Notes under the pieces: model-generated | Seen by the model: only the letters and a program-made list of their open reading frames with translations | Databases searched by the model: none | What the model was told of the DNA's origin: nothing | Shown: in pieces, positions 4,795-37,791 of the stretch | Numbering within the stretch: position 1 is the first letter of the stretch | How the letters are laid out: every line of letters begins with the position of its first letter | Program-made: the position numbers and the translations under genes | UHGV virus genome: UHGV-0848487 | Strand: one strand, 5' to 3' | Length of the DNA stretch: 40,883 nt | Source of the DNA: a virus

Positions 4795-4832
4795 TACATG
4801 TCAAGAATAAATTATTCCAACATACAAGGCAA

Positions 4833-11713: not shown

Positions 11714-11882
11714 CTTTGTTCAGGTTGAAGCGGTTAATCAGTTCACGGCGTGTCTCGTATAGCGACTCAACCATTTGCTCGGCTACCGCGATTTTAGTAT
11801 TCAGGACGTACATCACGTGCCCGATGTCTACGCCGCCGTCAACGGCCTCTACCATCATCTTTTCATATTCGCGGTCAGTCAT
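11697..11882 (-). CDS. hypothetical protein
   Basis: Track ORF 11697..11897; preferred ATG 11882 (MTDREYEK) overlapping upstream stop. Confidence 0.35.
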   Translation of the reverse strand: MTDREYEKMMVEAVDGGVDIGHVMYVLNTKIAVAEQMVESLYETRRELINRFNLNKGDTNA

Positions 11883-12034
11883 TTCTTCTCTCCCCACATG
11901 CGATTGAGATACTTGTTCTTGTCCGGCCCAGGGAAACTGTTACGTTTCATCAGTTCCTCGCGTGTCGGGAACGGAGTGTGACTTACTTTACGACCTACGC
12001 GTAACGGTTGGCTTATCTGACCTTGTTCGCTCAT
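11879..12034 (-). CDS. hypothetical protein (51 aa)
   Basis: ATG 12032-12034 after GGAGAG; ends ...GEKK with ATGA overlap; under track cutoff. Confidence 0.3.
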   Translation of the reverse strand: MSEQGQISQPLRVGRKVSHTPFPTREELMKRNSFPGPDKNKYLNRMWGEKK

Positions 12035-12213: not shown

Positions 12214-12242
12214 AATATAATTGGTGTGAGAGTAATAGTCAA
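12214..12242 (-). promoter_or_regulatory. sigma70-like promoter TTGACT-N17-TATATT (minus strand)
   Basis: Read on minus strand upstream of the 12180 gene block. Confidence 0.4.
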
Positions 12243-12271
12243 CTAGTCATTGCGGAAGATAGATAAAAAAA

Positions 12272-15052: not shown

Positions 15053-15212
15053 CAGCTTCACCCCTTTTCTCATCCACCCCGACTAGCAGCGATTTAGTGT
15101 CGCCGCCACACACCGAAGTGCTACTAATTATTTCGTAAGCGTCTACCAGTTCGCCTAAAGTCCAGCTACCGTACCAGCCCACCTCTGTCTCTCCTCTCGC
15201 TTGTGTAAATGA

Positions 15213-15241
15213 ATAGTAGCCTATTCTATCTTAGTGTGCAA
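15213..15241 (-). promoter_or_regulatory. sigma70-like promoter TTGCAC-N17-TACTAT (minus strand) overlapping GAATAG palindrome
   Basis: Minus strand TTGCACactaagatagaataggcTACTATtcattta; near-identical to promoters at 16507..16535 and 37733..37761. Confidence 0.5.
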
Positions 15242-15556: not shown

Positions 15557-15757
15557 TCACACTTCTGGCGGCTCGGGTAACGGCATCCAGTGCGTCACGT
15601 ACTTATCGTAGTGATTCCAGAAAGGCTTTCTCCCGTCATCAGGAACTATGTAATAATCGTGCTGAACTGCGTTATTTAACGTTTCATACACCAGGAACTC
15701 TTTATCCGTATACCCATTACCCGGCAGCATCTCACTACACTTAATCCACTCACCCAT
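15557..15757 (-). CDS. DUF551-like protein (66 aa)
   Basis: C-terminal THWMPLPEPP motif; paralog on the plus strand at 20925..21182 ends ITHWMYLPELPEG. Confidence 0.5.
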   Translation of the reverse strand: MGEWIKCSEMLPGNGYTDKEFLVYETLNNAVQHDYYIVPDDGRKPFWNHYDKYVTHWMPLPEPPEV

Positions 15758-16472: not shown

Positions 16473-16506
16473 AACCCTCACTCCTCTGTCTCGTTCCGAT
16501 AAGTGA

Positions 16507-16535
16507 ATAGTATCCTATTATGTTGGGGCGTGCAA
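16507..16535 (-). promoter_or_regulatory. sigma70-like promoter TTGCAC-N17-TACTAT (minus strand) overlapping GAATAG palindrome
   Basis: Minus strand TTGCACgccccaacataataggaTACTATtcactta, about 25 nt upstream of the 16472 gene. Confidence 0.5.
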
Positions 16536-16594
16536 GAGATTAGTTACGTTGCCGTTGTGATTCTTTCGTTTCTTAAAGGAGTACGCAACGCAGT

Positions 16595-16614
16595 GGGTGG
16601 GCGTTAGCCCACCC
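16595..16614. promoter_or_regulatory. GC-rich 8-bp hairpin GGGTGGGC-gtta-GCCCACCC in early intergenic region
   Basis: Perfect stem, no U-tract on either strand. Confidence 0.3.
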
Positions 16615-16779
16615 CAGCGGAGTGAAGTACTCTCTACCTCACTCACGGCAACTATAGAAACTTTTAATTATCAGTGACTTATGAAGGAGGGTAAAATTTA
16701 AATAGACGGGGGCTTTCTTGCCACTTGCTGTTACTGGGATGAAACTTAGATACTAACGTTACCAAGAGTACTGTTTAGC

Positions 16780-16802
16780 GCCCCGCTTTAGGGCGGGGCT
16801 TT
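16780..16802 (+). terminator. hairpin GCCCCGC-loop-GCGGGGC followed by TTTA
   Basis: Near-identical to the element at 5353..5372 but in opposite orientation. Confidence 0.35.
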
Positions 16803-16956
16803 AAGTACCCGAGACTTAAGAATGATGTTTCTAAGTAATTCTGAATTAAGGTCCTTCGATACATTGATTTTACAGCTACATTTTATTTTGTCAATAGGTT
16901 GTGTTTGGCTATTGTAGGTGTTATAGTTGTTTCACTTGATAAAGAGGGCACGTAAA

Positions 16957-17136
16957 ATGACACAGAAAGAAGTAGCAGACTTAATCGGAGTTTCTCCTAT
17001 GACGCTTAATCGCTGGCTGCGGTCGGGTAAGTTCCCTGAGTGTTGCCGGGTTATTAACGGCTACCGTCAGCCGGGTACGTTTGACCGCGCTACTGTGGAG
17101 GCGTGGATTAAGGAGAACGTAAAAGATGCTAACTAA
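16957..17136 (+). CDS. AlpA-like HTH transcriptional regulator
   Basis: Preferred ATG 16957 after AGAGGG; sequence EVADLIGVSPMTLNRWLRSGKFPE ... TVEAWIKEN matches AlpA/excisionase-like family pattern. Confidence 0.65.
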   Translation: MTQKEVADLIGVSPMTLNRWLRSGKFPECCRVINGYRQPGTFDRATVEAWIKENVKDAN

Positions 17137-17401
17137 ATTCCAGAAACATATATTAATGTGTGCACGCAGACTGACCGAAGCGAACGGCGCTTTTACGGTA
17201 GACGGGCTTCGGAGATACCGGTTGGATAATTACGGTGTAAACCCGATTAAACATGCTTTAGATGTGCTCGAGCGACATGGTGAGATTCTTAATAAAGGAA
17301 AGTTTTATCGGGCAACAAGAGCAACGCCGATTACAGAGAAAGCGAGAAGTATTGGAAAAGTGTTGGTCCCCGAGGGTAATATCTCCCGCGACCTGGAATA
17401 A
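17126..17401 (+). CDS. hypothetical protein (91 aa)
   Basis: ORF track; start overlaps AlpA-like stop. Confidence 0.45.
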   Translation: MLTKFQKHILMCARRLTEANGAFTVDGLRRYRLDNYGVNPIKHALDVLERHGEILNKGKFYRATRATPITEKARSIGKVLVPEGNISRDLE

Positions 17402-17459
17402 AAGAAAGCCCCGACGCGGTGAACGCCGAGGCTAAATTACTTGCTGAAGGAAATACAAC

Positions 17460-19745
17460 ATGTCCGATGTAATTTTATCCTACTCGTGGTCCCGTCGCAA
17501 CGCGCGGGCGGAGAAAAAGGATATAAACGTCAGAACCACACATACGGCAACACTGGATGACCTGAAAGAGTTAATTCAGCCGCTTGATGCTGTTCGTGAC
17601 GGGATTAACCCTAAGACCGCGCCAGGTTATATCACTGCCGCGTGCGATTCTATACACAGCACCGTAAAAGACCCGGAAACAGGTGACTTTAAGCAGGCCC
17701 GTAAAGGCTTCTTTTATCGCTGTGACGCGTCTGTAAGCAAATCGTCGCTGGCGTATCTGGACTTCGACAGCGCAACGCCGGAAGAGTACCAGGAAGCGGT
17801 GCGCCTGGTTAAACGCAGCCGCCTGGCTATGTGCCTCTACACCACGGCATCCCATACCGATGGGTCACCGCGCTTTCGCGTCGTCATGCCGCTGGGCCGC
17901 CCGGTAGAAGGCGGTGACATCATCCGTGTTCGTCATGGATTGCTGGAGCACTTCTTCAAAGGTATGGGTGCGGACCGCAGCGGGTTCACTCTGTCTCAGC
18001 CGATGTACCTGCCGCCGGTTGGCTCTACTGTTATCTGGTCGCGCCGCAACGACCTGATTGACCCGGACGAGTTACTGGAAGGCATCCCCGCCGTTGACGT
18101 TAGCAGCGCATCGGATTACCAGATACCGAAAGAACTGCGAACAGCGTTTACCGATGCGTTTGAAGCACTGGCGTTCGAGTACGGCGGTATTATGACCCCG
18201 CGCGGCCTTAAGATGCCCGCTACGCCGGAACACGCCGAGAACTACAGCGACCCGACACCGCGCCCGGATGACTTCCTGCTGTGCTTCCCGCGCGAGGGAT
18301 ATGAAGCGCCTAACGTAACCATGATTCACGACACCGACATTACGGCGACCGAGGGCATGTCACCGAAAGAGGTGTGGAAGTATGCGTGCGATGCAACCGG
18401 GCTGCCGTTCAGTGAAGTCGCAGAGGCCATCGGTTGGGGTGCACGTGAATCTGTTTCTTGCAGCCTGGACGACCTTGAAGACGACGAGGACTCAGAGGAG
18501 GACGAGTTACCGGAACCGGTAAAGGCTGATTTCGTCGTTGAAGGGTACATGCCGTCGGATTGCATATGGGATATCGTCGGGGAGTCCGGTACGTATAAAT
18601 CCTTCTATACGCTGGGGATGATGTACCTGAGCGCCACCGGATACCGGTTTGCGGGTGCTGACACCCAGCGTTGCCACCATTTCTATATCGACGGTGAAGG
18701 CGGCGCAGCTACCCGCACCCGTATCGATGCGCTCGCGGCTAAATATGGCGAGGAAGGTAAAGATTATGTACATGTTATAGACATGGGTGAAATACTCGGT
18801 ATGCGAGAGGATAAAAAACTTACAGCACTCATCCGTATGATGCGTGAAACAGCAGGAGAGGAACCGATCGGTATGATTGCGTTCGATACCCTCAACCAGA
18901 CGCTGGCCCTGACGATTGATAAGTTTGATGAGAACAGTTCATCAACTGCAATCGGCATGGGTAAAGTCATCGCTATCCTTAAAAAAGCGCGTGACGCGAC
19001 TAAAGCTGCGGTAGGCGTTGTACACCATACACCGAAGGGCGGAAAGAAAGCCCGAGGTAGTGGTGCGCTGTACGCTGGCGTCGATGTGGAGCTGACAATC
19101 GAACGCGCGACAGACCGTCAGATAAATGTATACCACTCTAAATTTAAGCATGGGCCGCAACAGAAGACGGTTGGTATGGTGCTTGAGTCGGTACAGTTCC
19201 GCGAAGCCCCGCCACCGAAAGAATACCGCGCGGTTGAGTTCCTCGGTAGCACAGAGGAATACGGCACAACCGTTAACCTCGACCTGCCTGAGCCGCACAA
19301 AGCGCTTGTGCTTATGCCGTGGGGCTTCGAACCGTTCAAGACCGACGAGGAGAAAGAGCGGGAAGAAGGACTGACTAAGGAAGGTAAAGAAAACGTACGT
19401 AGGACCATGGAGAACGCCGTCAACAGTTCGGAAGCCACGATACTGGCGGCGTTTGAACTGGCGGAAGGAACCTACAACGGCAACGAAGGTATCACGGTAG
19501 CCGCGGCAAATAAGCTCGCACAGTCTGACCCCAACGCGAAGGCGTTCAACTCCAAAGAAGTCATAGAACGCGGAAAGATTAAGAAAATGGTTGAGGCGGG
19601 GTATCTTGTACCTGGTACGGACGAAAACAATCAGATAATCCCGGGCCGTTACAGATTGAATACCCGAATAACGGACAACAAGATTCCGAAGACAATATAC
19701 GAACCGAATGAAATGCTGACAGTGACAGAGGAGGATTTGGAATAG
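17460..19745 (+). CDS. replication protein: primase-like N-terminal region fused to RecA-like/AAA ATPase (helicase-type) domain
   Basis: 761 aa; LAYLDFD acidic motif in N-terminal half; deviant Walker A GESGTYKS, Walker B-like IGMIAFDTLNQ, HHTPKGG motif in C-terminal half. Confidence 0.55.
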   Translation: MSDVILSYSWSRRNARAEKKDINVRTTHTATLDDLKELIQPLDAVRDGINPKTAPGYITAACDSIHSTVKDPETGDFKQARKGFFYRCDASVSKSSLAYLDFDSATPEEYQEAVRLVKRSRLAMCLYTTASHTDGSPRFRVVMPLGRPVEGGDIIRVRHGLLEHFFKGMGADRSGFTLSQPMYLPPVGSTVIWSRRNDLIDPDELLEGIPAVDVSSASDYQIPKELRTAFTDAFEALAFEYGGIMTPRGLKMPATPEHAENYSDPTPRPDDFLLCFPREGYEAPNVTMIHDTDITATEGMSPKEVWKYACDATGLPFSEVAEAIGWGARESVSCSLDDLEDDEDSEEDELPEPVKADFVVEGYMPSDCIWDIVGESGTYKSFYTLGMMYLSATGYRFAGADTQRCHHFYIDGEGGAATRTRIDALAAKYGEEGKDYVHVIDMGEILGMREDKKLTALIRMMRETAGEEPIGMIAFDTLNQTLALTIDKFDENSSSTAIGMGKVIAILKKARDATKAAVGVVHHTPKGGKKARGSGALYAGVDVELTIERATDRQINVYHSKFKHGPQQKTVGMVLESVQFREAPPPKEYRAVEFLGSTEEYGTTVNLDLPEPHKALVLMPWGFEPFKTDEEKEREEGLTKEGKENVRRTMENAVNSSEATILAAFELAEGTYNGNEGITVAAANKLAQSDPNAKAFNSKEVIERGKIKKMVEAGYLVPGTDENNQIIPGRYRLNTRITDNKIPKTIYEPNEMLTVTEEDLE

Positions 19746-19754
19746 GTAAAAATA

Positions 19755-19773
19755 AAGGGGCGTTAAGCCCCTT
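19755..19773 (-). terminator. hairpin AAGGGGC-gttaa-GCCCCTT, U-tract on minus strand
   Basis: Stop codon of the XRE-like gene lies in the loop; located 10 nt after the replication gene stop on the plus strand. Confidence 0.5.
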
Positions 19774-19978
19774 CACCCAACGCCAGCCACTTGGCATCTA
19801 CTTGCAGCACTTCCGCCAGTTTAAACAGCGTCGCTGGGCGGACGTCCTGAGTTACCCCAAGTGCCAGCTGGTTAATCGCGCCTTGGGAAACACCGGCCAG
19901 GACAGCCAGATGGCGCTGGGAGATACCGAGTTCTTTACGGCGTTGCTCTACACGGATACCTAGTTCAGATGGTTGCAT
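19763..19978 (-). CDS. XRE-family (Cro/CI-type) HTH transcriptional regulator
   Basis: 71 aa; LGISQRHLAVLAGVSQGAINQL helix-turn-helix; AAGGAG RBS; antisense to the replication module. Confidence 0.8.
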   Translation of the reverse strand: MQPSELGIRVEQRRKELGISQRHLAVLAGVSQGAINQLALGVTQDVRPATLFKLAEVLQVDAKWLALGEGA

Positions 19979-19998
19979 GTCAATTACTCCTTAGTCAG

Positions 19999-20027
19999 TT
20001 GATATGTGAATAGTACCATATTAATTA
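19999..20027 (+). promoter_or_regulatory. candidate promoter TTGATA-N17-TAATTA overlapping the divergent XRE promoter (-10 TACTAT on minus strand at 20010..20015)
   Basis: Contains GTGAATAGTA operator-like motif; face-to-face overlapping promoters. Confidence 0.4.
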
Positions 20028-20042
20028 TTTTAGAAAAGCCCA

Positions 20043-20071
20043 TTGACAAGTGAATAGTTCGCTATTATAGT
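20043..20071 (+). promoter_or_regulatory. strong sigma70-like promoter TTGACA-N17-TATAGT
   Basis: Consensus -35, 17-nt spacer containing GTGAATAGTtcgCTATTA palindrome, -10 TATAGT; 30 nt upstream of the 20103 gene. Confidence 0.6.
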
Positions 20072-20102
20072 TAGCCCATACCAAACGAGAGGAGAATAAA
20101 TA

Positions 20103-20612
20103 ATGTTAGAGAAATTCTTAGTATTACTGGAACGTTTCGTAGTTGCGCATGAACTGATTGCTGCGAACAGCGCGAAACGACCGATGCCGTCAACTGAGTG
20201 TGTAGGTGAAATGCTTGTAGATGTATCGGTTACCGGAGAGGTGCTTGGAGTCGACCCAGGCACTGGCGTCGGGAAAGAAATCCCGGTCGAAGGCGAGGGC
20301 CTCGTTGACACTAAACCTGCGGAAGAAGAGAAGCCGAAACGCAAGCCGCGTAAAGCTAAAGTAGAGGAGCCAACGCCAGAGCCGGAAGAAGAGAAAGAAG
20401 AAGTCGATTACCAGTCTCTGCGCGACCAGATTCAGGCTATCGACGATGCGATTAACGAAGGCCCAAGCGATGCCGCGTGCGACGATTCTGACGAACTGCT
20501 GGAAGAGTTTACCGGTAAGAAGATGAAGATTGCAGCGATTAAAGACGAAGACCTGGCTGAGTATCTGGAGCGCCTGACAGCAATCAAGAACAAGTATTTC
20601 GAAGAAGAATAA
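20103..20612 (+). CDS. highly acidic hypothetical protein
   Basis: 169 aa, Glu/Asp-rich with short basic patch KPKRKPRKAK; GAGGAG RBS; first gene after strong promoter. Confidence 0.55.
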   Translation: MLEKFLVLLERFVVAHELIAANSAKRPMPSTECVGEMLVDVSVTGEVLGVDPGTGVGKEIPVEGEGLVDTKPAEEEKPKRKPRKAKVEEPTPEPEEEKEEVDYQSLRDQIQAIDDAINEGPSDAACDDSDELLEEFTGKKMKIAAIKDEDLAEYLERLTAIKNKYFEEE

Positions 20613-20619
20613 CTATCCC

Positions 20620-20638
20620 GCGGCCTTCGGGCCGCTTT
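20620..20638 (+). terminator. hairpin GCGGCC-ttcg-GGCCGC followed by TTT
   Basis: Directly after acidic protein gene. Confidence 0.45.
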
Positions 20639-20655
20639 AACTGAGGGTCGGGATT

Positions 20656-20928
20656 ATGATTTACCAACTATACCGCGCCGTTGACCGGCGGGATACCACA
20701 GAGGCGCTATGGTTATTGCGTGCGCCGTCCGGTGCGCACCAGATGGAAGAGATGGCGTACTTAGGCAAAGTACCGCTGTCTAAAGATATAGGCCGTCACG
20801 TGTCGCAGATTAAGCGCACGACATTCGCCAAGCCTGACTTTTATGTCTTTGAGTCGATGTACAGCTGGGCTATGCACTGCGACCATAAGACACGACATTT
20901 AATTGACCAGTGGGAGAGCAGGGTATGA
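20656..20928 (+). CDS. hypothetical protein (90 aa)
   Basis: ORF track; RBS GAGGG. Confidence 0.45.
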   Translation: MIYQLYRAVDRRDTTEALWLLRAPSGAHQMEEMAYLGKVPLSKDIGRHVSQIKRTTFAKPDFYVFESMYSWAMHCDHKTRHLIDQWESRV

Positions 20929-21182
20929 ATTGGGTTAGTGTAAACGAAGCATTGCCGGAGTCAAAAGATGATTCTGTTTTAGTTTGCTCAGTAGATGGTG
21001 GTAAATATGACGATAACGGGTTCCCGGAAGGTGGGATCGATTTTGTACATATACAGGACTATTTCGACGACATTACGGCTGGGCTGGATGAGAACGGAAA
21101 TCAGCTATATACGAAACGGTATATCGAGATGGGCATAACTCACTGGATGTATTTACCGGAACTGCCGGAGGGCACTAAATGA
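20925..21182 (+). CDS. DUF551-like protein
   Basis: Preferred ATG 20925 (MNWVSV) overlapping upstream stop; C-terminal ITHWMYLPELPEG. Confidence 0.5.
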   Translation: MNWVSVNEALPESKDDSVLVCSVDGGKYDDNGFPEGGIDFVHIQDYFDDITAGLDENGNQLYTKRYIEMGITHWMYLPELPEGTK

Positions 21183-22432
21183 TGATCCTAAAAGAGCGCG
21201 GCGGCAATAACGATGTACACGCCTTACTATCACCGTCAGGCGCTAAAAAGTGGCTAACCTGCCCGGCTTCTCTGGCCTGTGAAAAAGATATTCCTAACAC
21301 GTCCGGTAAAGCCGCGGTATTAGGCACAGCTATGCACACCATAGCCGAGATGCATCTTAACCAGTACATCAAAGGTGCTGCGCTGCCGTTAGAGCGTGAA
21401 GTCGGCGCTTACGTGCTGGATGAAGGTAAAGGCCAGATTAAGGCGCTAATCAGCCCAATGAAAGGCGCGGTACTGGTTACGGCGGACATGATTGAGCAGG
21501 TGCGCAAGTACACCGACTACTGCAAAGCGATTATCGACGTAGCGACTTACGACAAGCTGGAAATGCGAGTCAATCTTACTGAGGTATTGCATCCTGGGTA
21601 TGAAGGTGTCGAGACGTTCGGAACGGCTGACCTCGTTGCTGTCCAGGAACTGGCGAACACCGACGAGCACATGCTCATTATTGGCGACCTTAAAACTGGA
21701 CGGCATCGTGTTGAAGCGAAAGAAAACAAGCAGCTTATGCTTTACGCTCTCGGTGTTTATCGCCGACTCAAGAGACGTTATAACATCACAGTAGTGCGCC
21801 TGGTCATCTTCCAGCCGTACGCGGGGGGTGCGTCAGAGTGGGACATCTCGGTCGAAGGTCTGGAACTGTTCGCTAAGTTCGCACAGAAACGGGCACTGTT
21901 AGCGCTTGATGCTTATTTCCGTGGAAAGAAGAACCTGAAAGCGTCGGACTTTAAACCGTCGGTCGATGGTTGCCAGTGGTGCCGGTTCTCTGAACAGTGT
22001 GCCGCGCGTACAAAGACGGTTAATTCTGTACTGGCGGAAGAACTTGAAGACGACTTTGTGCTGGAACTGACGACGGAGCAACTCGTAGTTGAGTATGAGA
22101 AGTTGCCGCTGTTACGCCAGCACATCGACAAGGTTGAGAAAGCGATGTCCGCCGCATTGCATTCCGGTAAGAAAGTTCCTGGGTACAAGCTGGTTGAAGG
22201 TAAGATGGGCAACCGTGCGTGGAAAGATGCCGATGCGATTGAAGTGTCACACGGCGACATTCTCAAAAAAGAGGTATTGATGACCCCTACGGAGGCAGCA
22301 AAAGTTCTTTCGGCGGATGAGATGGCAGCGCTTGAGCCGTTTATTACCCGTAAGCCGGGCGCACCATGTGTCGCAACGGCAGACGACAAACGTCCTGAGT
22401 GGAATCAGGTTAGTGAAGAAGATTTGGAATAA
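21179..22432 (+). CDS. PD-(D/E)XK exonuclease, Cas4/RecB-like with Cys cluster
   Basis: GTADLVAV ... IIGDLKTG nuclease motifs; C-terminal CQWCRFSEQC; 417 aa. Confidence 0.6.
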   Translation: MMILKERGGNNDVHALLSPSGAKKWLTCPASLACEKDIPNTSGKAAVLGTAMHTIAEMHLNQYIKGAALPLEREVGAYVLDEGKGQIKALISPMKGAVLVTADMIEQVRKYTDYCKAIIDVATYDKLEMRVNLTEVLHPGYEGVETFGTADLVAVQELANTDEHMLIIGDLKTGRHRVEAKENKQLMLYALGVYRRLKRRYNITVVRLVIFQPYAGGASEWDISVEGLELFAKFAQKRALLALDAYFRGKKNLKASDFKPSVDGCQWCRFSEQCAARTKTVNSVLAEELEDDFVLELTTEQLVVEYEKLPLLRQHIDKVEKAMSAALHSGKKVPGYKLVEGKMGNRAWKDADAIEVSHGDILKKEVLMTPTEAAKVLSADEMAALEPFITRKPGAPCVATADDKRPEWNQVSEEDLE

Positions 22433-22436
22433 AGTG

Positions 22437-22465
22437 TTGACACCTGAATAGTTAGCTATTATAGT
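22437..22465 (+). promoter_or_regulatory. sigma70-like promoter TTGACA-N17-TATAGT
   Basis: Near-duplicate of promoter at 20043..20071 including TGAATAGTtagCTATTA palindrome. Confidence 0.6.
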
Positions 22466-22518
22466 TCTAATCACTGGCCGGGCAGTTCCCGGAGTAAACT
22501 GAAAAGCGAGAAATCACG

Positions 22519-23145
22519 ATGGGTATTAAACTGAATCTGCGTAAAGTAAACACTGCATGGGTTAACGTATTCGAACGCGAAAAAGACCGTGAAAACGATG
22601 ATGGCTCAATCACTAAAGGCCAGTACAGCGCGACTATCATCCTGCCGTCTGACCACGCACAAATCGACGCGCTCTACGACACCGTTTACGCTGTGGTTGA
22701 AGAAGCGTTGGGCGCAGCTGCCGCTGAGAAGTGGATGAAGTCCAACTACGGCGAAGGTAAGCACATGGATAAATGTGCGATTAAAGACATTGCCGAGCGC
22801 GACAATCCGTTTGAAGACTTCCCGGAAGGCTTCTACTTCAAGGCGAAGGCACAGAAACAGCCACTGATTGTAACCTCTAAAAAAGGCGAGACTCAGGTAG
22901 AACAGGACTTCAATGTAGACGGCGAACAGATTGAAGGTGAACAGGTTTACAGCGGCTGCGTCGCTAACGTAAGCGTTGAAATCTGGTTCAGTCAGAAATA
23001 TAAAGTCCTCGGCGTTAACCTGCTGGCGATTAAATACATTGGCGAAGGCAAAGCGTTTGGCGGTTCTAAAGTCGCTGCCAGCGTAAATGACCTGGAAGAC
23101 GACGAAGAAGATGAAGCACCGCGCCGCGAGCGTCGTCGTCGCTAA
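22519..23145 (+). CDS. ssDNA-binding protein-like (T7 gp2.5-type, putative)
   Basis: 208 aa with acidic C-terminal tail DLEDDEEDEA; position immediately upstream of DNA polymerase. Confidence 0.4.
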   Translation: MGIKLNLRKVNTAWVNVFEREKDRENDDGSITKGQYSATIILPSDHAQIDALYDTVYAVVEEALGAAAAEKWMKSNYGEGKHMDKCAIKDIAERDNPFEDFPEGFYFKAKAQKQPLIVTSKKGETQVEQDFNVDGEQIEGEQVYSGCVANVSVEIWFSQKYKVLGVNLLAIKYIGEGKAFGGSKVAASVNDLEDDEEDEAPRRERRRR

Positions 23146-23164
23146 TATCTGAATCAATTTAACT

Positions 23165-23187
23165 AAGGCCCTTCATTGGGCCTTTTT
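23165..23187 (+). terminator. hairpin AAGGCCC-ttcatt-GGGCCTT followed by TTT
   Basis: Between SSB-like gene and polymerase. Confidence 0.45.
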
Positions 23188-23204
23188 ACTAAGGGTCAAA
23201 AATA

Positions 23205-25385
23205 ATGAGTTACCTGTTCTTAGACTTTGAAACATTCTCCGAAGCCGATTTGAAGAAAGTCGGCTCCTACGCTTACGCCGAACATCCAACCACCGAAGTT
23301 CTAATCTGCACATATGCTTTTGACGACGAGCCTGTGCAGGTATGGGATTGCACCAACGGCAGCGACATACCGGGCGATTTGCACCGCGCGTTACGCCGTC
23401 TGGTGAAACCAAACAGCCGTATTAAGATGGTGTGGCACAACGGCTCAATGTTCGACAGGCCCATCATGAAGCACTGCTGGGGTTTTGATATTCCCGTAAG
23501 CAACACCATTGATACGATGATTTGGGCGTTTCGTCACGCGCTGCCGGGTTCACTCGACGCATTGTGCGAAGTGCTTGGCGTGTCTGCAGACAACGCGAAA
23601 GACAAACGAGGCAAAGCGCTTATTCAGCGTTTCTCTAAACCGACGCCGAAGAACTACAAAATTCGCCGCTACACTGCTGAAACGCACCCGGATGAGTGGG
23701 CGCTGTTCATCAAGTACGCCGTTAGCGACATCACCGCGATGCGTGAAGTGTTCCATAAGTTGCCGCGTTGGGGTAACTCCGAGTTCGAAGACCGTGTACT
23801 GGAACTGGACCAGTTAATTAACGACCGCGGGTTTAAGGTCGACGTTGCGCTGGCGGAAGCCGCAATTGAAGCTGTGGAGAAACACAAGGCACAGTTACAG
23901 GAAGAAGCCCAACGTAAATACGGCGGCTCGCTTACAGGTAAGGACTTCCTGCCGATTCTGCGTGAACTGGCGCCTGCGCATCGCATCCACAACGCGCAGA
24001 AGTCTACGCTTAACGACCTGCTTGCTGACGATGATTTACCGGACGACGCCCGCACGATTATAGAAATGCGCCTCGGGGCGGCATCCACTGCGTCAACGAA
24101 ATATAACCCGCTGCTGTTAGGCCGCTCGTCTGACGACCGCCGTCGCGGTTGCATCCAGTATGGTGGAGCTAAACGTACGTTACGATTTGCGGGTAAAGGC
24201 TTCCAGCCGCAGAACCTGGCGCGTGGGTACTATCACGATGATGAACTGGATAAAGGTATTTCAGCATTACTTAAGGGCCGAGCACATCGCCGTTTTGATG
24301 TAGCCAAGCTAACGGCATCTACGGTTCGCAGCTGCATTATCCCGGAAGCCGGACATAAGTTTGTCGTCGCCGACTACTCGAACGTTGAAGGCCGCGGTTT
24401 GGCGTGGCTGGCTGGCGAAGAAACCGCGCTTGATACGTTCCGTGCCGGGCTGGATATTTACTGCGTAACCGCAGGCAAGATGTTCGGCATGGAGCCGGAT
24501 TACATTAAGAAAGAACGTAAAGACTTACGCCAGATTGGTAAGGCATGCGAACTTGGACTTGGCTACGCGGGTGGTGTCGGCGCATTCGTACAGTTCGCCA
24601 AGAACCTCAGCCTTGACCTTGTTGATATGGCAAAAACAATGGACGGGACTTTCCCCGACCACATCTGGGCTGCTACCGCACGTGGATATGAGTGGGCGCG
24701 TATTCAGGAAGCCAAGCGACCACCACGTCCAGGTGAAAATGATGACCGACCATCTTATATTCTTGATAAGAAAGTGTGGCGTACCTGCGACGCTATCAAG
24801 CGTATGTGGCGTGAGTCACACCCGGAAACAGTAGCTTTCTGGCGGGATATTGAAGACGCAGCTATGGCAGCTATCCGCAATCCGGGCAAAGAGTTCACCG
24901 CAGGGCCGCGGGGAGTTAAGTTTTCGCGCAACGTAGAAACGGACAACAACGGCAACAAAGTCGCCGGTTGGTGGTTGCGGATGACGTTGCCGTCGGGCCG
25001 CGTTATGTCTTATCCGGGCGTCGGGTTGAGCGTGTCGAAAGAGACAGACGAAGATGGAAAGGTGTCCACTAACGTCCGCATCAAATACCAGGGGGAGAAC
25101 CAGTTAACCCGTCAGTGGGGCTTCCAGTACACCTACTCTGGTAAACTGGTGGAAAACTGCACTCAGGCTCTGTGCCGTGATTTGCTGGCTAATGCGCTGC
25201 TGAACGTAGAGGCAAACGGCTACCCGATTGTTCTTCACGTACACGATGAGATTATCTGCGAGACACCAGATTTACCGGAATACAATGTAGATGAACTGGA
25301 GAAATTAATGTGTGCGTTGCCTGAGTGGGCAGAAGGCTTCCCTCTTGTAGCAGAAGGTGCGGAGATGAAGCGTTATGCCAAGTAA
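23205..25385 (+). CDS. DNA polymerase, family A with 3'-5' exonuclease domain
   Basis: Exo I motif LFLDFETFS; motif A ADYSNVEGR; motif B RQIGKACELGLGYAGG; motif C HVHDEII. Confidence 0.85.
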   Translation: MSYLFLDFETFSEADLKKVGSYAYAEHPTTEVLICTYAFDDEPVQVWDCTNGSDIPGDLHRALRRLVKPNSRIKMVWHNGSMFDRPIMKHCWGFDIPVSNTIDTMIWAFRHALPGSLDALCEVLGVSADNAKDKRGKALIQRFSKPTPKNYKIRRYTAETHPDEWALFIKYAVSDITAMREVFHKLPRWGNSEFEDRVLELDQLINDRGFKVDVALAEAAIEAVEKHKAQLQEEAQRKYGGSLTGKDFLPILRELAPAHRIHNAQKSTLNDLLADDDLPDDARTIIEMRLGAASTASTKYNPLLLGRSSDDRRRGCIQYGGAKRTLRFAGKGFQPQNLARGYYHDDELDKGISALLKGRAHRRFDVAKLTASTVRSCIIPEAGHKFVVADYSNVEGRGLAWLAGEETALDTFRAGLDIYCVTAGKMFGMEPDYIKKERKDLRQIGKACELGLGYAGGVGAFVQFAKNLSLDLVDMAKTMDGTFPDHIWAATARGYEWARIQEAKRPPRPGENDDRPSYILDKKVWRTCDAIKRMWRESHPETVAFWRDIEDAAMAAIRNPGKEFTAGPRGVKFSRNVETDNNGNKVAGWWLRMTLPSGRVMSYPGVGLSVSKETDEDGKVSTNVRIKYQGENQLTRQWGFQYTYSGKLVENCTQALCRDLLANALLNVEANGYPIVLHVHDEIICETPDLPEYNVDELEKLMCALPEWAEGFPLVAEGAEMKRYAK

Positions 25386-25506
25386 ACTGATTATCGCGGT
25401 ACTGGCTGGATTCGCCGCCGGTGTTTACTGTCATGAGGGTCAGTACGGCATGATGGTTGCCGTATTGGGTATATTCATCGCAATTTATCTGTGGGTGCTG
25501 GAATGA
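25375..25506 (+). CDS. small membrane peptide (43 aa), hypothetical
   Basis: ATG overlapping polymerase 3' end; two hydrophobic segments; under track cutoff. Confidence 0.3.
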   Translation: MPSKLIIAVLAGFAAGVYCHEGQYGMMVAVLGIFIAIYLWVLE

Positions 25507-25598
25507 AAATTTACTGGTTATATGAAGAAGACTGTCGAATCTGCCCTCGCTGCGGTATCGCGCATACGAAACGGGAGGGGTGTATAGATGAGTACGCC
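25503..25598 (+). CDS. small Cys-rich peptide (31 aa), hypothetical
   Basis: ATGA overlap; CRICPRCG ... C motif. Confidence 0.25.
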
Positions 25599-25875
25599 TG
25601 AGGGGCGCGTGCAGAAATACGCAAAAGAGCGATTCGAGGCCCTGGGAGGCCTCGTACGCAAATTGTCGTACGAAAATAGAGCGGGCGCCCCCGACCTGCT
25701 GGTAATTCTCCCTGGTGGCATCATCTGGTTCGTCGAGGTTAAGAAAGACGAAAACACGAAGCCGGACCCGCACCAGTTACGAGAGCACGAGCGGATGCGT
25801 AAACGTGGTGCAAATGTTTTTGTCGTTGGTTCGTTTAAACAGGTTGACGACCTAATAGCGGGCTATTATAGTTAA
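25588..25875 (+). CDS. VRR-NUC domain nuclease
   Basis: GAPDLLVILPGGIIWFVEVKKDENTKPDPHQ matches VRR-NUC PD-(D/E)XK core; RBS GGGAGGGG. Confidence 0.7.
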   Translation: MSTPEGRVQKYAKERFEALGGLVRKLSYENRAGAPDLLVILPGGIIWFVEVKKDENTKPDPHQLREHERMRKRGANVFVVGSFKQVDDLIAGYYS

Positions 25876-25905
25876 TCACACACCAACAATATAAGGAATT
25901 GAGAA

Positions 25906-26100
25906 ATGAGACACGAATATGACCGCAAACCAGCACGTGACATCGTACCGGGTGACATGATTTTCAACGTTAAGACACGTCAACCTGTTGCCGTTGATAC
26001 GGTGTTCGTCGAGTCGAACGGTAAACTGGTTATCGAAGATGTAACGGGTAACGTTACGGCGTTCGGGCGTAAAGAGCTGGTACTCTACATTAAGGGTTGA
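25906..26100 (+). CDS. hypothetical protein (64 aa)
   Basis: ORF track; RBS AAGGAA. Confidence 0.45.
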   Translation: MRHEYDRKPARDIVPGDMIFNVKTRQPVAVDTVFVESNGKLVIEDVTGNVTAFGRKELVLYIKG

Positions 26101-26102
26101 TT

Positions 26103-27527
26103 ATGTCTAAATTTATCCGTCGAGAGTACCAAAAGCTCATGACTTCATTCATGCTGCGGCATCCGCGCTGTAATATTTGGGCTTCGATGGGCGCGGGCAA
26201 AAGTTCCGCAACGATGTGGGTGCTTAACCGACTGTTCCGCAACGGCCAACTTAATGATGATGACCGCGTGTTAATCCTCGCCCCTTTACGTGTTGCGTCC
26301 GGTACGTGGCCATCAGAACAAACTAAGTGGGGATTCCCGTGTCTGCGCGTCGTAGATGCGACCGGTTCAGAGAAGCGCCGCATCGCGGCGCTGGAGTCAG
26401 ATGCTAACGTGGTGTGCACTAACTACGAAGTTATCGAATGGCTGATTGACTACTACGGCAAAGACGACTGGCCTTTTACCGTTATCGTCGCCGACGAAAG
26501 CACGAAGCTGAAATCATTCCGCAGCCGTTCAGGTGGAAGCAAGAGGGCGAAGGCGCTAAGTAAAGTTGCGTTCGGTAAGGTTAAGCGTTTCATTAACCTG
26601 ACTGGTACGCCGTCGCCGAACGGCCTCAAGGACTTATGGGGCCAGAACTGGTTTATCGACGCGGGTGAGCGCCTCGGTTCTTCATACACAGCATTCACCG
26701 ACCGCTGGTTTAACTCGGTACAGAAAGGCAAGTCAGCTATGGCGCGTGAGTACCATGCGCGCCCGGGCGCAGATAACGAGATTCACCAGAAGATGAAAGA
26801 CATTAGTCTCACGATTGACGCCGCCGAGTGGTTTGGATGTGAAGCGCCGATTATTGTACCAGTGGAAATTGACCTGCCGAAGAAAGCACGTCAGGCGTAC
26901 ATCGATATGGAGGAAAAGTTATTCGCGGAACTGGAGAGCGGGGAAGTTGAAGCGGCTAACGCCGCGGCGAAGACCTCAAAATGCTTGCAGCTTGCATCTG
27001 GTGCCGTATATGTGACGGGCGAAGACGGGGAAGCAACGAAAGACTGGGAGAAAGTGCACGACACGAAACTGGATGCGCTGGAGTCAATTGTTGAGGAGCT
27101 ACAAGGTGCGCCGTTGCTTGTGGCTTATCAGTTTAAGCATGAACTGGAGCGCATCCTTAAGCGATTCCCGCAGGCGCAGGCGTTCGCCAAAGGTGCGAAG
27201 GGTAATAAGCAGATGGAAGCGTGGAACCGTGGCGAAATCGAAATCTTATGCGTGCACCCGGCGTCAGCCGGGCATGGTTTGAATTTACAGGACGGCGGGC
27301 ATCATCTGGCGTTTATTTCGCAAGGCTGGAATCTTGAGCACTATTTGCAGGTTGTCGAGCGTATAGGCCCGGTCCGCCAGAAACAGGCTGGCCACGAGCG
27401 CCCGGTGTTCCTTTATCACATAGTCGCTAAAGACACTCTTGACGAGGTTGTTGCCGCGCGTACAGACGAGAAGAAATCGGTCCAGGAAGAATTGCTTAAT
27501 TATATGAAGAGAAGAGGTAAGAAATGA
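26103..27527 (+). CDS. SNF2-family DNA helicase
   Basis: GAGKS Walker A, VIVADESTKLK motif II, NLTGTPSPNGLKDLW motif III; preferred ATG 26103. Confidence 0.7.
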   Translation: MSKFIRREYQKLMTSFMLRHPRCNIWASMGAGKSSATMWVLNRLFRNGQLNDDDRVLILAPLRVASGTWPSEQTKWGFPCLRVVDATGSEKRRIAALESDANVVCTNYEVIEWLIDYYGKDDWPFTVIVADESTKLKSFRSRSGGSKRAKALSKVAFGKVKRFINLTGTPSPNGLKDLWGQNWFIDAGERLGSSYTAFTDRWFNSVQKGKSAMAREYHARPGADNEIHQKMKDISLTIDAAEWFGCEAPIIVPVEIDLPKKARQAYIDMEEKLFAELESGEVEAANAAAKTSKCLQLASGAVYVTGEDGEATKDWEKVHDTKLDALESIVEELQGAPLLVAYQFKHELERILKRFPQAQAFAKGAKGNKQMEAWNRGEIEILCVHPASAGHGLNLQDGGHHLAFISQGWNLEHYLQVVERIGPVRQKQAGHERPVFLYHIVAKDTLDEVVAARTDEKKSVQEELLNYMKRRGKK

Positions 27528-27689: not shown

Positions 27690-30644
27690 TTATTTATCTT
27701 CTAGTGCTGCCAGCCTCTTCTCGAACTCGCGCATCTTCTTACGCTGATAGGCAATCTCTATGAAGAACATCTGGTCCGCCCTAACCCCCCATCTGCCGCC
27801 GGGAGGGGATACTTGTACAGTCTGGCCATCTTCATCAATATCATACGCAGCTTCAATTGAGTCGTAGCACAAGAAAGCATATTTACAATCGGTAGAATCT
27901 TTCTCCATAAGCCCATGGTTGACCAAGATGTCTCGCACATCTTGGGCTATCACACCGAAGTGTATCCTTGCAGTGTCACCCTTGATTGCTAGGCTTTCAA
28001 GCCACTTAAAAGATATTACATGTATATCCTCCCATGCGGTAAGGAGTTGTCCCTCAATTTCCTCTTTGTTCGTCTTAAGTGTACCATCAGACGTGTTTAT
28101 CGTACCGGTGGCCGCGTACACCGTAGTCCACCTATTACTTGCCGAACCTAAAGACACTCGCGCGTCTAAGTAAGGAAGAAAATTGTTGTATGAGTAGAAG
28201 CCTCCTGACGCATACATAATAGCCCTGTTAGGCGTTGCATGGTTTGCCCCGTACAGTTGCAGCAACGCACCATCGGAACTGGATGCACCATCACCACCGC
28301 TAACTATCAGTCTTTGACCCGATGGGGTTTTAGTGGGGACTGTTTTTGAAATCAGCCCGTAATCACCATCAAACCGTGCACGCACGGCGGACTGTTGTGT
28401 ACCATCGTATTCCAGCCCCGTTACATGCAGGGAGTACACGCTTACATCATTGTCAAACGTTAAAGGTGCTTCTACATGGCGTACACCATCTACCCCCATG
28501 GCGACAGGTATTGTACGGTTAGGAGTTGCTCCGTATTTGAAATCACGTGATACGTACGGGTGGTCTTCAATCTTTATCCGGTAGCTATATAAGTCAGCCG
28601 GATGCCCATCATGTTTGTACCATAACCTCGCACTGTTATCCCCTATGCTCCAGGGAGAGAAGAAGTCTTCCCCACCAAAGATATAGTACAACCAGCCATC
28701 TTTAACACAGACCGAGCCGACGCCGACAGCAGAGTTAACGATATGACCCTGGTATATTTGGTCGGTAATATTAAACCACTGAACATCATCTAAAGATGAA
28801 GGCCAGGACGACACATTAACTTTGCACATAAAGGTCCTCGGATACGAACCTTCATAGCGGCTGTCCTGCTCGCCACCTTCCCACTCACCAAAGGCACGTT
28901 CTGTACCAAAGATATAGAGATAGTCACCTACTTTAGCGAACGGAAGATTGGAGTGATGTACATTGTTCGGAAATCGCAAGTAGCTCCAGTTTTGCCCAGA
29001 ATCGGTGCTCATCGCCAGTGTAGAGCCAGGGGAAGTAGGTAATGTGCCGCGTGTGGTAAGGTATAACACACCACCATAACTTTTCACGCACGGCTCAGAA
29101 GCGTTATCAGCGTATGCCTGAGCGACAGTGCGACGAACGAATACGCCTGGATTGTCATACACGTTACTAAAATACAAGACACCGAGACGCCGAGGGGACA
29201 CATCGCCGTTGTGATAGCCGACAGCGATAGTGTAGTTAACATCATCTATGACCGCAAAACTATGTGTCTCCGTGACACACAAATCAGCGTTAGTGGAGTA
29301 TGCTACCCCAGGCAATTCGGTAATTTCCCACGGGCTGTCCCAGAATCGCGTTGCGAAGTTCCAGGTAACACCCGCATTGTTTATGGTGGAACTCGCCGGG
29401 CTTGAGAGCGTAACAGTGAACGTATTTCGGTTAATTATAGACGAAACCGTCATATTACCCGATACGCCAGTTGCCGATGTATTAGAGAAGTTAACCGCAT
29501 CTCCTGCTTTTAGGCCATGATTTTCTATGACAATGGTAGCAGTAGTGGAGCCAGAACTAATAGTTATTCCGCCGGTTGGGTGTCTAAAATACGGCATTGG
29601 GCGTGACCAAAGTTCTGCCTTCTTCATCCGCATATTAGATAAGTAGCGGGTTTCTATAACTGCATATAATCGGTTGCCACACGTACCCATGCTCATGCAG
29701 TGGTAGTTAACTCTGTCCGTAGAAACACTAGCGTTATAGTCAGCATGGATTGGAGTCAACCACTCAGGCATTGACCAAGTCTGCCCGTCGTCACCAGAGC
29801 GAACCCAAGCTACATGTAAGTTTTGAACGCCATGTCGTTCGCCTGCCATAAACGGGGCGTAAATAACATGGTCGTAGACGAAAGTTTTATCCTGCGTCCA
29901 TGCGTTGTAGAACGGGGTATCCGTCACCTTAGTTAGTGAGCCGTTAAAGAAGCCATCAGCTACATAAGTAAGCGGTTGCCCGGCTACGCGCTCGTAAACG
30001 AATGCAGCATTCTTAAATTTACTAATGTCAGGTAATTGGGAAACTTTATAAGTCAAACCCCTGCCGTCTATAATCCAATTGTTGGGGGAAGCTGCTAATA
30101 CATTAAAAATAGATTGAGTATCATCAGTTACGCCGTCGCCCACGGCGCCCCATGCGCGCGGGTCGTATTCGTCCTTCCATCGCGCCACATGTAAATCTGG
30201 GTACAGAATTGCACCATTTACATCAGATATTTGCTGCCGCAGTATGACCGACCCGACAGGCTGCCACGCCCCATCTGCCACGCCACCGGTGGACTGCGGA
30301 GAAGATGACGCTGGGATAATTTTTGGTAGAGCACCCAACCAATAGTACCAATCCCCGTCACCGCCAGAGGACGACGGCCACAAAACTGCGGTGTTTCGGT
30401 CGTTAGCGGATAGTGTACCGCCTGACGTGAAATCAAAATCTGCCAGTTTAAAACCTGCGTCACGCAACACGGCGGGGAGTGTCTTCTGCGTCTGTCCAGT
30501 AACCTGATTTGTCGCGTAATCAATATCGGCACCACCGGCGACACCGCCGGATTTGCCAGTGATAACCTCGGCCTCGAAAATCTGATGTTTCTTGGCGGTT
30601 TGTAAATCCGCCAGGCTTAAAACGTCACCGCATCCGCTTGACAT
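27690..30644 (-). CDS. tailspike / tail fiber with sialidase-like beta-propeller (candidate endosialidase) and C-terminal intramolecular chaperone domain
   Basis: 984 aa; Asp-box motifs SGDDGQTW and STDSGQNW; C-terminal SDGTLK ... HFGVIAQDV region resembling autoproteolytic chaperone domains of endosialidases/tail fibers. Confidence 0.7.
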   Translation of the reverse strand: MSSGCGDVLSLADLQTAKKHQIFEAEVITGKSGGVAGGADIDYATNQVTGQTQKTLPAVLRDAGFKLADFDFTSGGTLSANDRNTAVLWPSSSGGDGDWYYWLGALPKIIPASSSPQSTGGVADGAWQPVGSVILRQQISDVNGAILYPDLHVARWKDEYDPRAWGAVGDGVTDDTQSIFNVLAASPNNWIIDGRGLTYKVSQLPDISKFKNAAFVYERVAGQPLTYVADGFFNGSLTKVTDTPFYNAWTQDKTFVYDHVIYAPFMAGERHGVQNLHVAWVRSGDDGQTWSMPEWLTPIHADYNASVSTDRVNYHCMSMGTCGNRLYAVIETRYLSNMRMKKAELWSRPMPYFRHPTGGITISSGSTTATIVIENHGLKAGDAVNFSNTSATGVSGNMTVSSIINRNTFTVTLSSPASSTINNAGVTWNFATRFWDSPWEITELPGVAYSTNADLCVTETHSFAVIDDVNYTIAVGYHNGDVSPRRLGVLYFSNVYDNPGVFVRRTVAQAYADNASEPCVKSYGGVLYLTTRGTLPTSPGSTLAMSTDSGQNWSYLRFPNNVHHSNLPFAKVGDYLYIFGTERAFGEWEGGEQDSRYEGSYPRTFMCKVNVSSWPSSLDDVQWFNITDQIYQGHIVNSAVGVGSVCVKDGWLYYIFGGEDFFSPWSIGDNSARLWYKHDGHPADLYSYRIKIEDHPYVSRDFKYGATPNRTIPVAMGVDGVRHVEAPLTFDNDVSVYSLHVTGLEYDGTQQSAVRARFDGDYGLISKTVPTKTPSGQRLIVSGGDGASSSDGALLQLYGANHATPNRAIMYASGGFYSYNNFLPYLDARVSLGSASNRWTTVYAATGTINTSDGTLKTNKEEIEGQLLTAWEDIHVISFKWLESLAIKGDTARIHFGVIAQDVRDILVNHGLMEKDSTDCKYAFLCYDSIEAAYDIDEDGQTVQVSPPGGRWGVRADQMFFIEIAYQRKKMREFEKRLAALEDK

Positions 30645-37761: not shown

Positions 37762-37791
37762 TCACTTACACCAACAATGAAGGGGTTTAAA

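Follow-up and report, generated by a model that had tools for sequence, protein, structure and literature searches.

The Cro protein of phage 434 is a single-domain protein of 71 residues with the five-helix HTH_3 fold (HTH, helix-turn-helix), and the operators of that phage, ACAA-N6-TTGT, are 14 bp long. Lambdoid Cro proteins have a CI partner, act at tripartite OR and OL regions and belong to phages with an integrase and a lysogenic state. In P1 (C1), in mycobacteriophage L5 (gp71, with its stoperators) and in phiC31 (c, with its conserved inverted repeats), one repressor acts on many dispersed operator copies located at promoters; these are larger proteins that maintain lysogeny. The controller (C) proteins of restriction-modification (R-M) systems act at paired operators in their own promoter region; in this way, and outside lysogeny, they time expression according to concentration, first activating and then repressing one local promoter. 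Here we analyse a small XRE/Cro-like gene at 19763-19978 (minus strand) of the virus genome UHGV-0848487, a stretch of 40,883 nucleotides referred to below as the window, which an earlier note made from the letters alone had described as encoding a Cro/CI-type HTH protein. The reading that we favour, and hold to be fairly probable, is that the 71-aa product (XRE) is a Cro-type dimeric repressor which recognizes the palindrome AATAG-N4-CTATT and times early and middle transcription in a strictly virulent siphovirus. By way of this one 14-bp palindrome, XRE would probably turn down about seven of the phage's own promoters.

The XRE protein matched Pfam HTH_3 (PF01381) over residues 11-65 with a score of 45.2 bits against a gathering cut-off of 23 (E = 9.7e-12), and the assignment as a Cro/CI-type HTH gene was thereby borne out. 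The nearest protein of solved structure was 434 Cro, likewise of 71 aa (E = 1.8e-6, XRE residues 6-68 against residues 4-64, ∼40% identity), followed by the 434 repressor DNA-binding domain, P22 C2, HipB and HigA. An AlphaFold2 model, for which database homologues served as the alignment, had a predicted local distance difference test score (pLDDT) of 79 and helices at residues 5-17, 21-28, 32-39, 48-57 and 62-66, and XRE is thus predicted to adopt the five-helix lambda-repressor-like fold. Foldseek searches with this model placed the 434 repressor DNA-binding domain, SinR-N and 434 Cro at the top (template modelling (TM) scores of ∼0.7-0.75), with P22 C2, the R-M controllers C.AhdI and C.BclI, and CapH among the further neighbours. 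The Gln that aligns with Gln28 of 434 Cro, at the start of the recognition helix, is invariant. XRE consists of the HTH domain alone, with neither a C-terminal oligomerization domain nor a peptidase/cleavage domain, and therefore cannot be a RecA-cleavable CI-type repressor.

To place the genome, positions 17000-23000 of the window were compared with phage records by megablast. The 448 records matched were headed by the Escherichia coli K1 phages K1G, K1H and K1ind2/3 (Kagunavirus, Guernseyvirinae; 92-95% identity), after which came hundreds of Salmonella phages of the genus Jerseyvirus. In an alignment with the complete K1ind2 genome, base 5 of the window fell on K1ind2 position 10677 and base 40883 on position 10685. 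The window is therefore a whole, circularly permuted Kagunavirus genome of 40.9 kb, and what is found nowhere in the window is found nowhere in the genome. The gene cut by the window ends is that of the major tail protein, which runs on the minus strand from ∼496 down through 1/40883 to ∼40216.

The XRE protein is common in this group of phages and scarce elsewhere. By tblastn it was present in 544 phage records, nearly all Guernseyvirinae, where, depending on the record, it is called 'transcriptional repressor', 'Cro', 'DicA', 'XRE family' or 'hypothetical'. Only 20 clusters in a collection of 5.8 billion proteins matched it; their identities were 74-97%, and none came from a contig longer than 45 kb. 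In GTDB species genomes, a search with the protein found only generic XRE matches of ≤45% identity (Bacteroidales, Firmicutes and other unrelated bacteria) and no close homologues. The gene is sometimes overlooked: the K1ind2 RefSeq record (NC_041898.1) leaves a 358-bp gap (32537-32895) between ORF33 and the helicase-primase gene, which aligns at ∼95% with the window and has the O_R palindrome (below) at 32574, and RP180 (MK737937.1) is likewise without an XRE annotation.

The XRE gene and the control region next to it contain the following features.

19763-19978, minus strand: XRE/Cro-like gene, 71 aa; open reading frame (ORF) with translation, monocistronic
19748-19778, minus strand: intrinsic terminator of the XRE gene, a GC hairpin and then UUUAUUUUU, from a terminator scan
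19987-19992, minus strand: Shine-Dalgarno (SD) sequence AAGGAG, 8 nt 5' of the XRE ATG, invariant in Kagunavirus and Jerseyvirus
20009-20022, palindrome: O_xre, imperfect candidate operator AATAGTACCATATT with 1 mismatch, containing the XRE -10
20010-20015, minus strand: XRE promoter -10 TACTAT, preceded by TGG (extended -10), with a poor -35
20043-20071, plus strand: consensus sigma-70 promoter TTGACA-17-TATAGT (11/12), driving orf169, a DUF551 gene and the exonuclease gene
20053-20066, palindrome: O_R, perfect candidate operator AATAGTTCGCTATT, occupying the promoter spacer and overlapping the first -10 base
20103-20612, plus strand: gene of 169 aa that heads the rightward operon, phrog_3127 (unknown function); it has no HTH and is not a second repressor

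Several points of the earlier note hold at this locus. XRE is the sole minus-strand gene in the plus-strand block 16957-27527, its -10 TACTAT lies at 20010-20015 behind a poor -35, and the consensus promoter at 20043-20071 matches 11 of 12 positions. The description of the promoters as face-to-face does not stand, since the XRE and consensus promoters are back-to-back and divergent, with their -35 regions ∼5 bp apart. The note was also right that two operator-like palindromes are present, one perfect and one imperfect, but they are not a local peculiarity, as the motif recurs at six promoters across the genome. Calling the region the architecture of a genetic switch was an overstatement, because the gene on the far side of the divergent promoter region encodes the phrog_3127 protein rather than a second repressor. 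A further plus-strand promoter that had been proposed, TTGATA-N17-TAATTA, was rejected: its -10 is poor, its -35 is not conserved in Jerseyvirus, and it is probably a by-product of a 25-nt duplication. This direct repeat (19999-20023 and 20043-20067, 80% identity) carries one palindrome in each copy.

The TACTAT hexamer of the XRE promoter is also found inside perfect palindromes at three other promoters, and the XRE promoter itself can be described as a copy of that promoter type (class B, below) with a degenerate left half-site; the left half is degenerate in Jerseyvirus too. A scan gave an alternative XRE promoter, TTCACT-16-TAAAAT (20054-20027), which is less supported than TACTAT because the latter recurs at the three paralogous promoters. 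The Kagunavirus promoter has the extended -10 and no usable -35, whereas in Jerseyvirus an extra 11 bp supplies TTGCGT-17-TACTAT. The elements invariant between the two genera are the SD, AATAGTAC (which holds the minus-strand TACTAT), the plus-strand TATAGTT, and the half-sites AATAG and C.ATT of the right palindrome. The spacing of the two local palindromes is 44 bp in Kagunavirus versus 55 bp in Jerseyvirus. This 11-bp difference amounts to one helical turn and keeps the phasing of the palindromes, which would be consistent with cooperative occupancy.

At the other end of the gene, the minus-strand terminator folds with -24.7 kcal/mol (z = -3.0; RNA folding of both strands), and a terminator is annotated at the corresponding place in the Schulenburg record. 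Read on the plus strand, the hairpin is not followed by a U-tract; it thus terminates minus-strand transcription only, and transcripts of the convergent helicase-primase gene may therefore read through antisense to XRE.

Perfect copies of AATAG-N4-CTATT occur at 15212, 16506, 20053, 22447, 25854 and 37749. Five lie between genes, and one shares sequence with the final codons of the VRR-NUC gene. All six overlap the -10 of a sigma-70-like promoter, and the leaders to the start codon measure 9-47 nt, a range which for the promoter at 15212 assumes the GTG at 15182 (otherwise 133 nt). Two layouts can be distinguished. Class A, at 20043, 22437 and 25844, is TTGAC(A/G)-N4-AATAGnnnnCTAT and then TATAGT. 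Class B, at 16506 (minus strand), 15212 (minus strand) and 37749 (plus strand), is TTGCAC-N10-AATAGGnTACTATT, where the -10 TACTAT lies inside the palindrome. Apart from the promoter at 20043, the sites, together with the first gene of the helicase-primase operon, are as follows.

22437-22465, plus strand: class A promoter TTGACA-17-TATAGT with operator AATAGTTAGCTATT at 22447-22460; 5' of the SSB (DUF2815) and DNA polymerase genes
25844-25872, plus strand: class A promoter TTGACG-17-TATAGT with operator AATAGCGGGCTATT at 25854-25867; 5' of orf64 and the SNF2 helicase gene
37733-37762, plus strand: class B promoter TTGCAC-17-TACTAT with operator at 37749-37762 over the -10; 5' of the superinfection-immunity-like gene, repair exonuclease and PNK genes
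16506-16535, minus strand: class B promoter with operator at 16506-16519 over the -10 TACTAT; drives the leftward small early genes starting at 16481
15212-15241, minus strand: class B promoter with operator at 15212-15225 over the -10 TACTAT; drives leftward genes from ∼15182, phrog_6094 first, towards the lysis genes
12234-12247, palindrome: one-mismatch operator-like site ACTAGTTGACTATT (read on the minus strand), overlapping the -35 TTGACT of a promoter past the terminator after the lysis genes
16957-17136, plus strand: HTH_17 gene, Xis-like and similar to recombination directionality factors (RDF), phrog_66 'excisionase and transcriptional regulator', from Pfam and PHROG matches; first gene of the helicase-primase operon

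Orthologous sites were found in phage Jersey for five of these. The site at 22447 is perfect at Jersey 32930, where it lies within an annotated promoter; that at 16506 corresponds to Jersey 39910, also within an annotated promoter, and that at 37749 to Jersey 16957. At Jersey 29243, the orthologue of 25854, the half-sites are identical and the spacer is different. The one-mismatch site at 12234 is conserved at Jersey 42338, adjoining the annotated promoter 42343-42371. The promoter of the helicase-primase operon (-10 TATAGT at 16922-16927, extended -10) has no AATAG-N4-CTATT site. A wider AATAG-N11-CTATT arrangement at this promoter (16893-16913) was considered as an operator and set aside, its right half not being conserved in Jersey. 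The first gene behind the promoter at 37749 is the superinfection-immunity-like gene (Pfam Imm_superinfect, phrog_1039; 37777-37983, plus strand), and between the promoter at 15212 and phrog_6094 there is a probable short unlisted ORF (GTG at 15182, minus strand, ∼35 aa) with a GAGGAG SD 7 nt 5' of it.

The number of sites is far above expectation. Six perfect sites were observed compared with 0.05 expected from shuffled sequences (12 matches against 0.27 when both strands are counted), and in an unbiased census of all 5-Nx-5 palindromes AATAG-N4-CTATT ranked first in this genome (6 copies), in K1ind2 (6) and in Jersey (4), the runners-up being terminator stems. The copies in Jersey are extended to TAATAG-N4-CTATTA. 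With at least two near-perfect sites added to the six perfect ones, all copies in this genome are at promoters, and the same pattern is seen in K1ind2, Jersey and the record CP088689.

Conservation was assessed for class A promoters of related loci picked by their -35 and -10 hexamers only (55 distinct contexts). The AATAG and CTAT of the spacer carry 1.6-2.0 bits, equal to the hexamers, compared with 0.4-1.1 bits for the central N4 and the other spacer bases. Orthologous sites in Jerseyvirus likewise keep their half-sites while the N4 changes, for example from CGGG to TGTT and from GGTA to GCCA. A composite of promoter and palindrome, TTGAC-N5-AATAG-N4-CTATTATAGT, was found in only ∼40 IMG/VR contigs, nearly all of 24-45 kb with a few fragments of 5-8 kb, and often several times per contig; these loci contain 137 perfect palindromes in 538 kb.

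The distribution of the palindrome bears on the question of whether XRE has its main targets in the host or in resident prophages, either as a DicA/Rac-type mimic that silences defence-carrying prophages or as an antitoxin-like or anti-defence factor. Some records do name the protein 'DicA', it is 42% identical by tblastn to the Rac dicA repressor, and the HipB and HigA antitoxins and CapH are among its structural neighbours. This role is nevertheless very improbable, as a cognate-looking palindrome is massively enriched at the phage's own promoters and no toxin or partner gene adjoins XRE. Its neighbours are the helicase-primase and phrog_3127 genes, and it is transcribed alone up to its own terminator, without the co-operonic toxin gene of HigA and HipB.

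XRE is the putative binder of the palindrome, and several features of the sequence point that way. Two copies flank its own divergent promoter region, the residue aligned with Gln28 of 434 Cro does not vary, and by analogy the 14-bp operator geometry is 434-like. XRE is also the only classical dimeric HTH protein found, the other recognizable DNA-binding proteins being the HTH_17 Xis-like protein and a sub-threshold NinH match.

The palindrome has been read differently in the literature. In the Kagunavirus fBC-Eco01, seven elements identified by PHIRE, with the consensus tgAATAGTa-ccTATTat-T, were taken as promoters for a phage RNA polymerase (PMC9825357), and seven PHIRE promoters are listed for Golestan (PMC7203180). 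Neither paper ties the repeat to an HTH gene (PMC9825357, PMC7203180). No RNA polymerase gene is present in the complete genome, in which all ORFs of ≥300 aa are accounted for, and the published interpretation is therefore untenable for this repeat. Our interpretation of the same repeat is that it is a repressor operator within host-type promoters.

A broader form of this alternative is that the palindrome is a phage-specific promoter element, or the site of the HTH_17 protein, of an unrecognized small phage protein or of a host regulator, and that XRE is confined to local action or has other targets. No domain can be recognized in many of the small early ORFs, and recognition helix and motif show no clear co-variation among the lineages compared (below). 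The elements lie, however, inside canonical sigma-70 -35/-10 pairs, three of them consensus-grade and needing no activator, and a 5-N4-5 palindrome implies a dimeric binder. To our knowledge, HTH_17/Xis-type proteins are not typical palindrome binders, which counts against the HTH_17 protein as the factor concerned. Copies on both sides of the XRE promoter region are, moreover, the usual signature of an autoregulated repressor. On balance we regard a binder or function other than XRE repression as unlikely, though deserving of serious attention.

Several observations weigh against XRE as the dispersed repressor. The palindrome partly coincides with the -10 hexamer, so that its conservation is partly promoter conservation and only the left half-site is independent. 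Helix-operator co-variation was compared across four lineages, Kagunavirus, Jerseyvirus, Salmonella phage vB_SenTO17 (TO17) and Serratia phage Smarc3. The recognition helices of Kagunavirus (SQGAINQL) and Jerseyvirus (SQSLITHL) differ, yet the half-site is common to both. TO17 lacks a dispersed palindrome despite its Jersey-like helix (TQSAISHL), and the copies in Smarc3 all have 1 mismatch. In the one Kagunavirus transcriptome, a coarse one for phage K1B4, the probable XRE orthologue (_004, by gene order only) is classed 'middle', not 'early' (PMC12645636). The HTH gene _008, one of the four earliest K1B4 genes and classed 'early', is more likely the HTH_17 gene by gene order, a mapping that is itself uncertain (PMC12645636). 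Finally, an XRE circuit leaves late-gene transcription unaccounted for.

With XRE as the repressor, the following order of events can be proposed from the sequence. On entry, host sigma-70 RNA polymerase would fire the strong phage promoters, that is, the three class A promoters of the replication module and the three class B promoters that drive the small early genes, the block beside the lysis genes and the repair/immunity genes, each bearing one candidate 14-bp AATAG-N4-CTATT operator on or against its -10. XRE would meanwhile accumulate from its own weak promoter with its extended -10 and poor -35. As a dimer, it would then bind the perfect palindromes, block RNA polymerase and turn the operons down. 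The XRE promoter, where only a degenerate operator copy is present, would for that reason be repressed last, giving negative autoregulation, and the helicase-primase operon, which is without a site, would escape control. The best reading of the outcome is a one-repressor circuit for timing and dosage, not a lysis-lysogeny decision; there is no CI partner, and the circuit is therefore not a bistable switch.

The earlier note had offered a timing switch in a virulent phage as one of two possibilities, and the evidence fits it: the genome contains no integrase and no prophage forms were found, the XRE ORF is intact, and a candidate operator lies on the -10 of seven promoters. The absence of an integrase, which the note could report for what it recognized in the window, was upheld on the complete genome. 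Pfam scans of ORFs of ≥170 aa lying outside the regions of 87-96% nucleotide synteny with annotated K1ind2 genes found no recombinase/integrase domain, and no integrase is annotated in the K1ind2, K1H, Jersey or CP088689 records. Among 5,426 complete E. coli genomes, plasmids included, megablast gave 0 matches to the replication module, and the published isolates of these phages are described as lytic (PMC7203180, PMC9825357, PMC9787291; BASEL preprint doi:10.1101/2024.09.12.612763).

One plasmid record calls for comment. Of 72,556 plasmids in PLSDB, 1 matched: CP088689.1, 'plasmid pC16EC0033-2', from a clinical E. coli blood isolate from Korea. The record is a complete circular Kagunavirus genome of 44,086 bp (1-44086) with the XRE gene and 8 perfect palindromes, in which no partition, plasmid-maintenance or integrase genes were found. 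It may stem from contamination, from ongoing infection of the sequenced culture or from a carrier state. Such a deposit is what might be put forward for XRE as a true immunity repressor, whose silencing of nearly all sigma-70 promoters permits a reversible, integrase-independent dormant, carrier or pseudolysogenic episome. The candidate operators do cover most recognizable early promoters, and superinfection-immunity-like and RDF-like genes are present. Contamination or ongoing lytic infection, however, explains a single record equally well, the genome has no partition, plasmid-replication-control, protelomerase or integrase genes, and no copy was seen in the complete E. coli genomes. XRE itself has no domain for oligomerization or cleavage, and the helicase-primase operon has no operator. 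We therefore consider an immunity role improbable. Were there such a carrier state, the Guernseyvirinae now put forward for use in therapy and in food biocontrol could not be called strictly lytic.

The other possibility raised in the earlier note, a remnant of temperate ancestry, has two parts that fared differently. The first, in which XRE would be a leftover without function from a temperate ancestor's immunity region, fails. The XRE ORF is intact in 40 of 40 related loci, and the median pairwise ratio of non-synonymous to synonymous substitution rates (dN/dS) is 0.056 among the Kagunavirus type (28 distinct 71-aa alleles) and 0.032 among the Jerseyvirus type (7 distinct alleles). The gene is under strong purifying selection and, with a dN/dS of ∼0.03-0.06, is therefore not a relic in decay. 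The two genera also share a conserved SD, -10, terminator and operators although their XRE proteins are only 51% identical, and more than 500 phage records contain the gene. A functionless remnant would be in keeping with lambdoid accessory genes and an RDF-like gene in a phage with no integrase, and integrase loss has been proposed for the Jerseyviruses (PMC9409062); against the evidence for selection, we find it barely credible.

The second part, descent from a temperate, lambdoid-like stock, is plausible given the RDF-like, NinH, DUF2737 and DUF551 genes. The RDF-like phrog_66 gene is a Jerseyvirus marker, and the strictly virulent Jerseyviruses may have lost their integrase (PMC9409062). 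The presence of this phrog_66 gene at 16957-17136 shows that the earlier note was wrong, at the sequence level, in finding no excisionase partner; the Xis/RDF assignment is a sequence-level match only, and the genome contains no integrase partner for it. Lambdoid nin-type genes were seen at 10881-11141 (minus strand), 11879-12034 (minus strand), 15557-15757 (minus strand) and 20910-21182 (plus strand) and comprise a NinH-like gene (below the Pfam threshold), a DUF2737 gene and two DUF551 paralogues. The NinH-like, DUF2737 and DUF551 genes suggest that the phage either exchanged genes with temperate lambdoid phages or descends from them.

Compared with lambdoid Cro, XRE shares the single 71-aa domain, the HTH_3 fold (as modelled), candidate 14-bp palindromes over early promoters and a presumed role in early turn-down during lytic growth. 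It differs in having no CI partner, no tripartite OR/OL, no integrase and no lysogeny, and only two local sites, one of them degenerate, with a sequence unlike that of the 434 operator. The sites are instead single operators at six to eight promoters throughout the genome. In gene order the picture is mixed. In TO17 and Smarc3 (XRE identities of 39-41% and 42%, respectively), XRE is the first gene of the helicase-primase operon and is divergent from the exonuclease/SSB/polymerase operon, a place equivalent to that of lambda cro, which heads the PR operon. Inversion of the helicase-primase block in Kagunavirus and Jerseyvirus leaves XRE by itself on the minus strand, convergent with the helicase-primase gene; in the present phage it is monocistronic.

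In having one short operator repeated at many promoters, the layout recalls P1 C1, L5 gp71 and phiC31 c. The present phage differs from those systems in being virulent, with no prophage form found, in the Cro-like size of its protein and in the position of the palindromes on -10 hexamers. The R-M controllers C.AhdI and C.BclI resemble XRE in being small proteins of the XRE fold, structural neighbours of it, and in the timing logic proposed here, but XRE has no R-M genes beside it, and the site is carried by many distant promoters that are strong enough without activation.

The XRE gene, the missing integrase and the repeat had each been recorded before, in papers or in database annotations. 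The new element is the proposal that one circuit links them, and the advance is incremental, not conceptual. Guernseyvirinae such as Kagunavirus and Jerseyvirus are among the phages most often isolated and suggested as agents for therapy and for the biocontrol of Salmonella and E. coli. Their genome papers disagree on the presence of a 'repressor', a temperate marker used to disqualify candidates, and one paper states that there is no repressor while listing a 'transcriptional repressor DicA' among the genes (PMC9787291). A Cro-type regulator of the lytic programme would resolve this annotation conflict. The analysis also corrects the published reading of the repeat as a set of phage RNA polymerase promoters and offers a transcription map in which seven or eight sigma-70 promoters bear the candidate operator and a single operon would escape control. 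The model predicts that XRE supplied in trans blocks infection and that there is cross-immunity between the two genera, which would be useful for engineering and for containment of synthetic-biology phages.

Elsewhere in the genome, a 445-bp non-coding stretch (16482-16926) separates the leftward early genes from the helicase-primase operon. Within it are two GC-rich hairpins, at ∼16597-16616 and ∼16780-16801, together with a minus-strand promoter close to consensus, TTGACA-16-TAAAAT (16894-16867), that has no evident gene downstream. An Rfam search of the whole window found nothing. The stretch could be a replication origin or an unclassified RNA.

The segment that encodes the tailspike is without a counterpart in K1ind2 and is 97% identical to LF7074P1.

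27690-30644, minus strand: tailspike, endosialidase, with an N-terminal extension and beta-propeller, beta-barrel, tail-spike and S74 chaperone domains

As the tailspike is an endosialidase, the phage targets the K1 polysialic-acid capsule.

In the late region, a second conserved palindrome, ATGTTGGAATAAnnTATTC, occurs at 4805-4817 and 5588-5600 (minus-strand reading), directly 5' of TTGACA/TTGACT -35 hexamers, and the late region of TO17 has three copies of GGAATAA-N-TTATTCC at 394, 647 and 1277. Two XRE half-sites in everted order (CTATTCGAATAG) are found at 5582-5593. This second palindrome may be a regulatory site of the late promoters.

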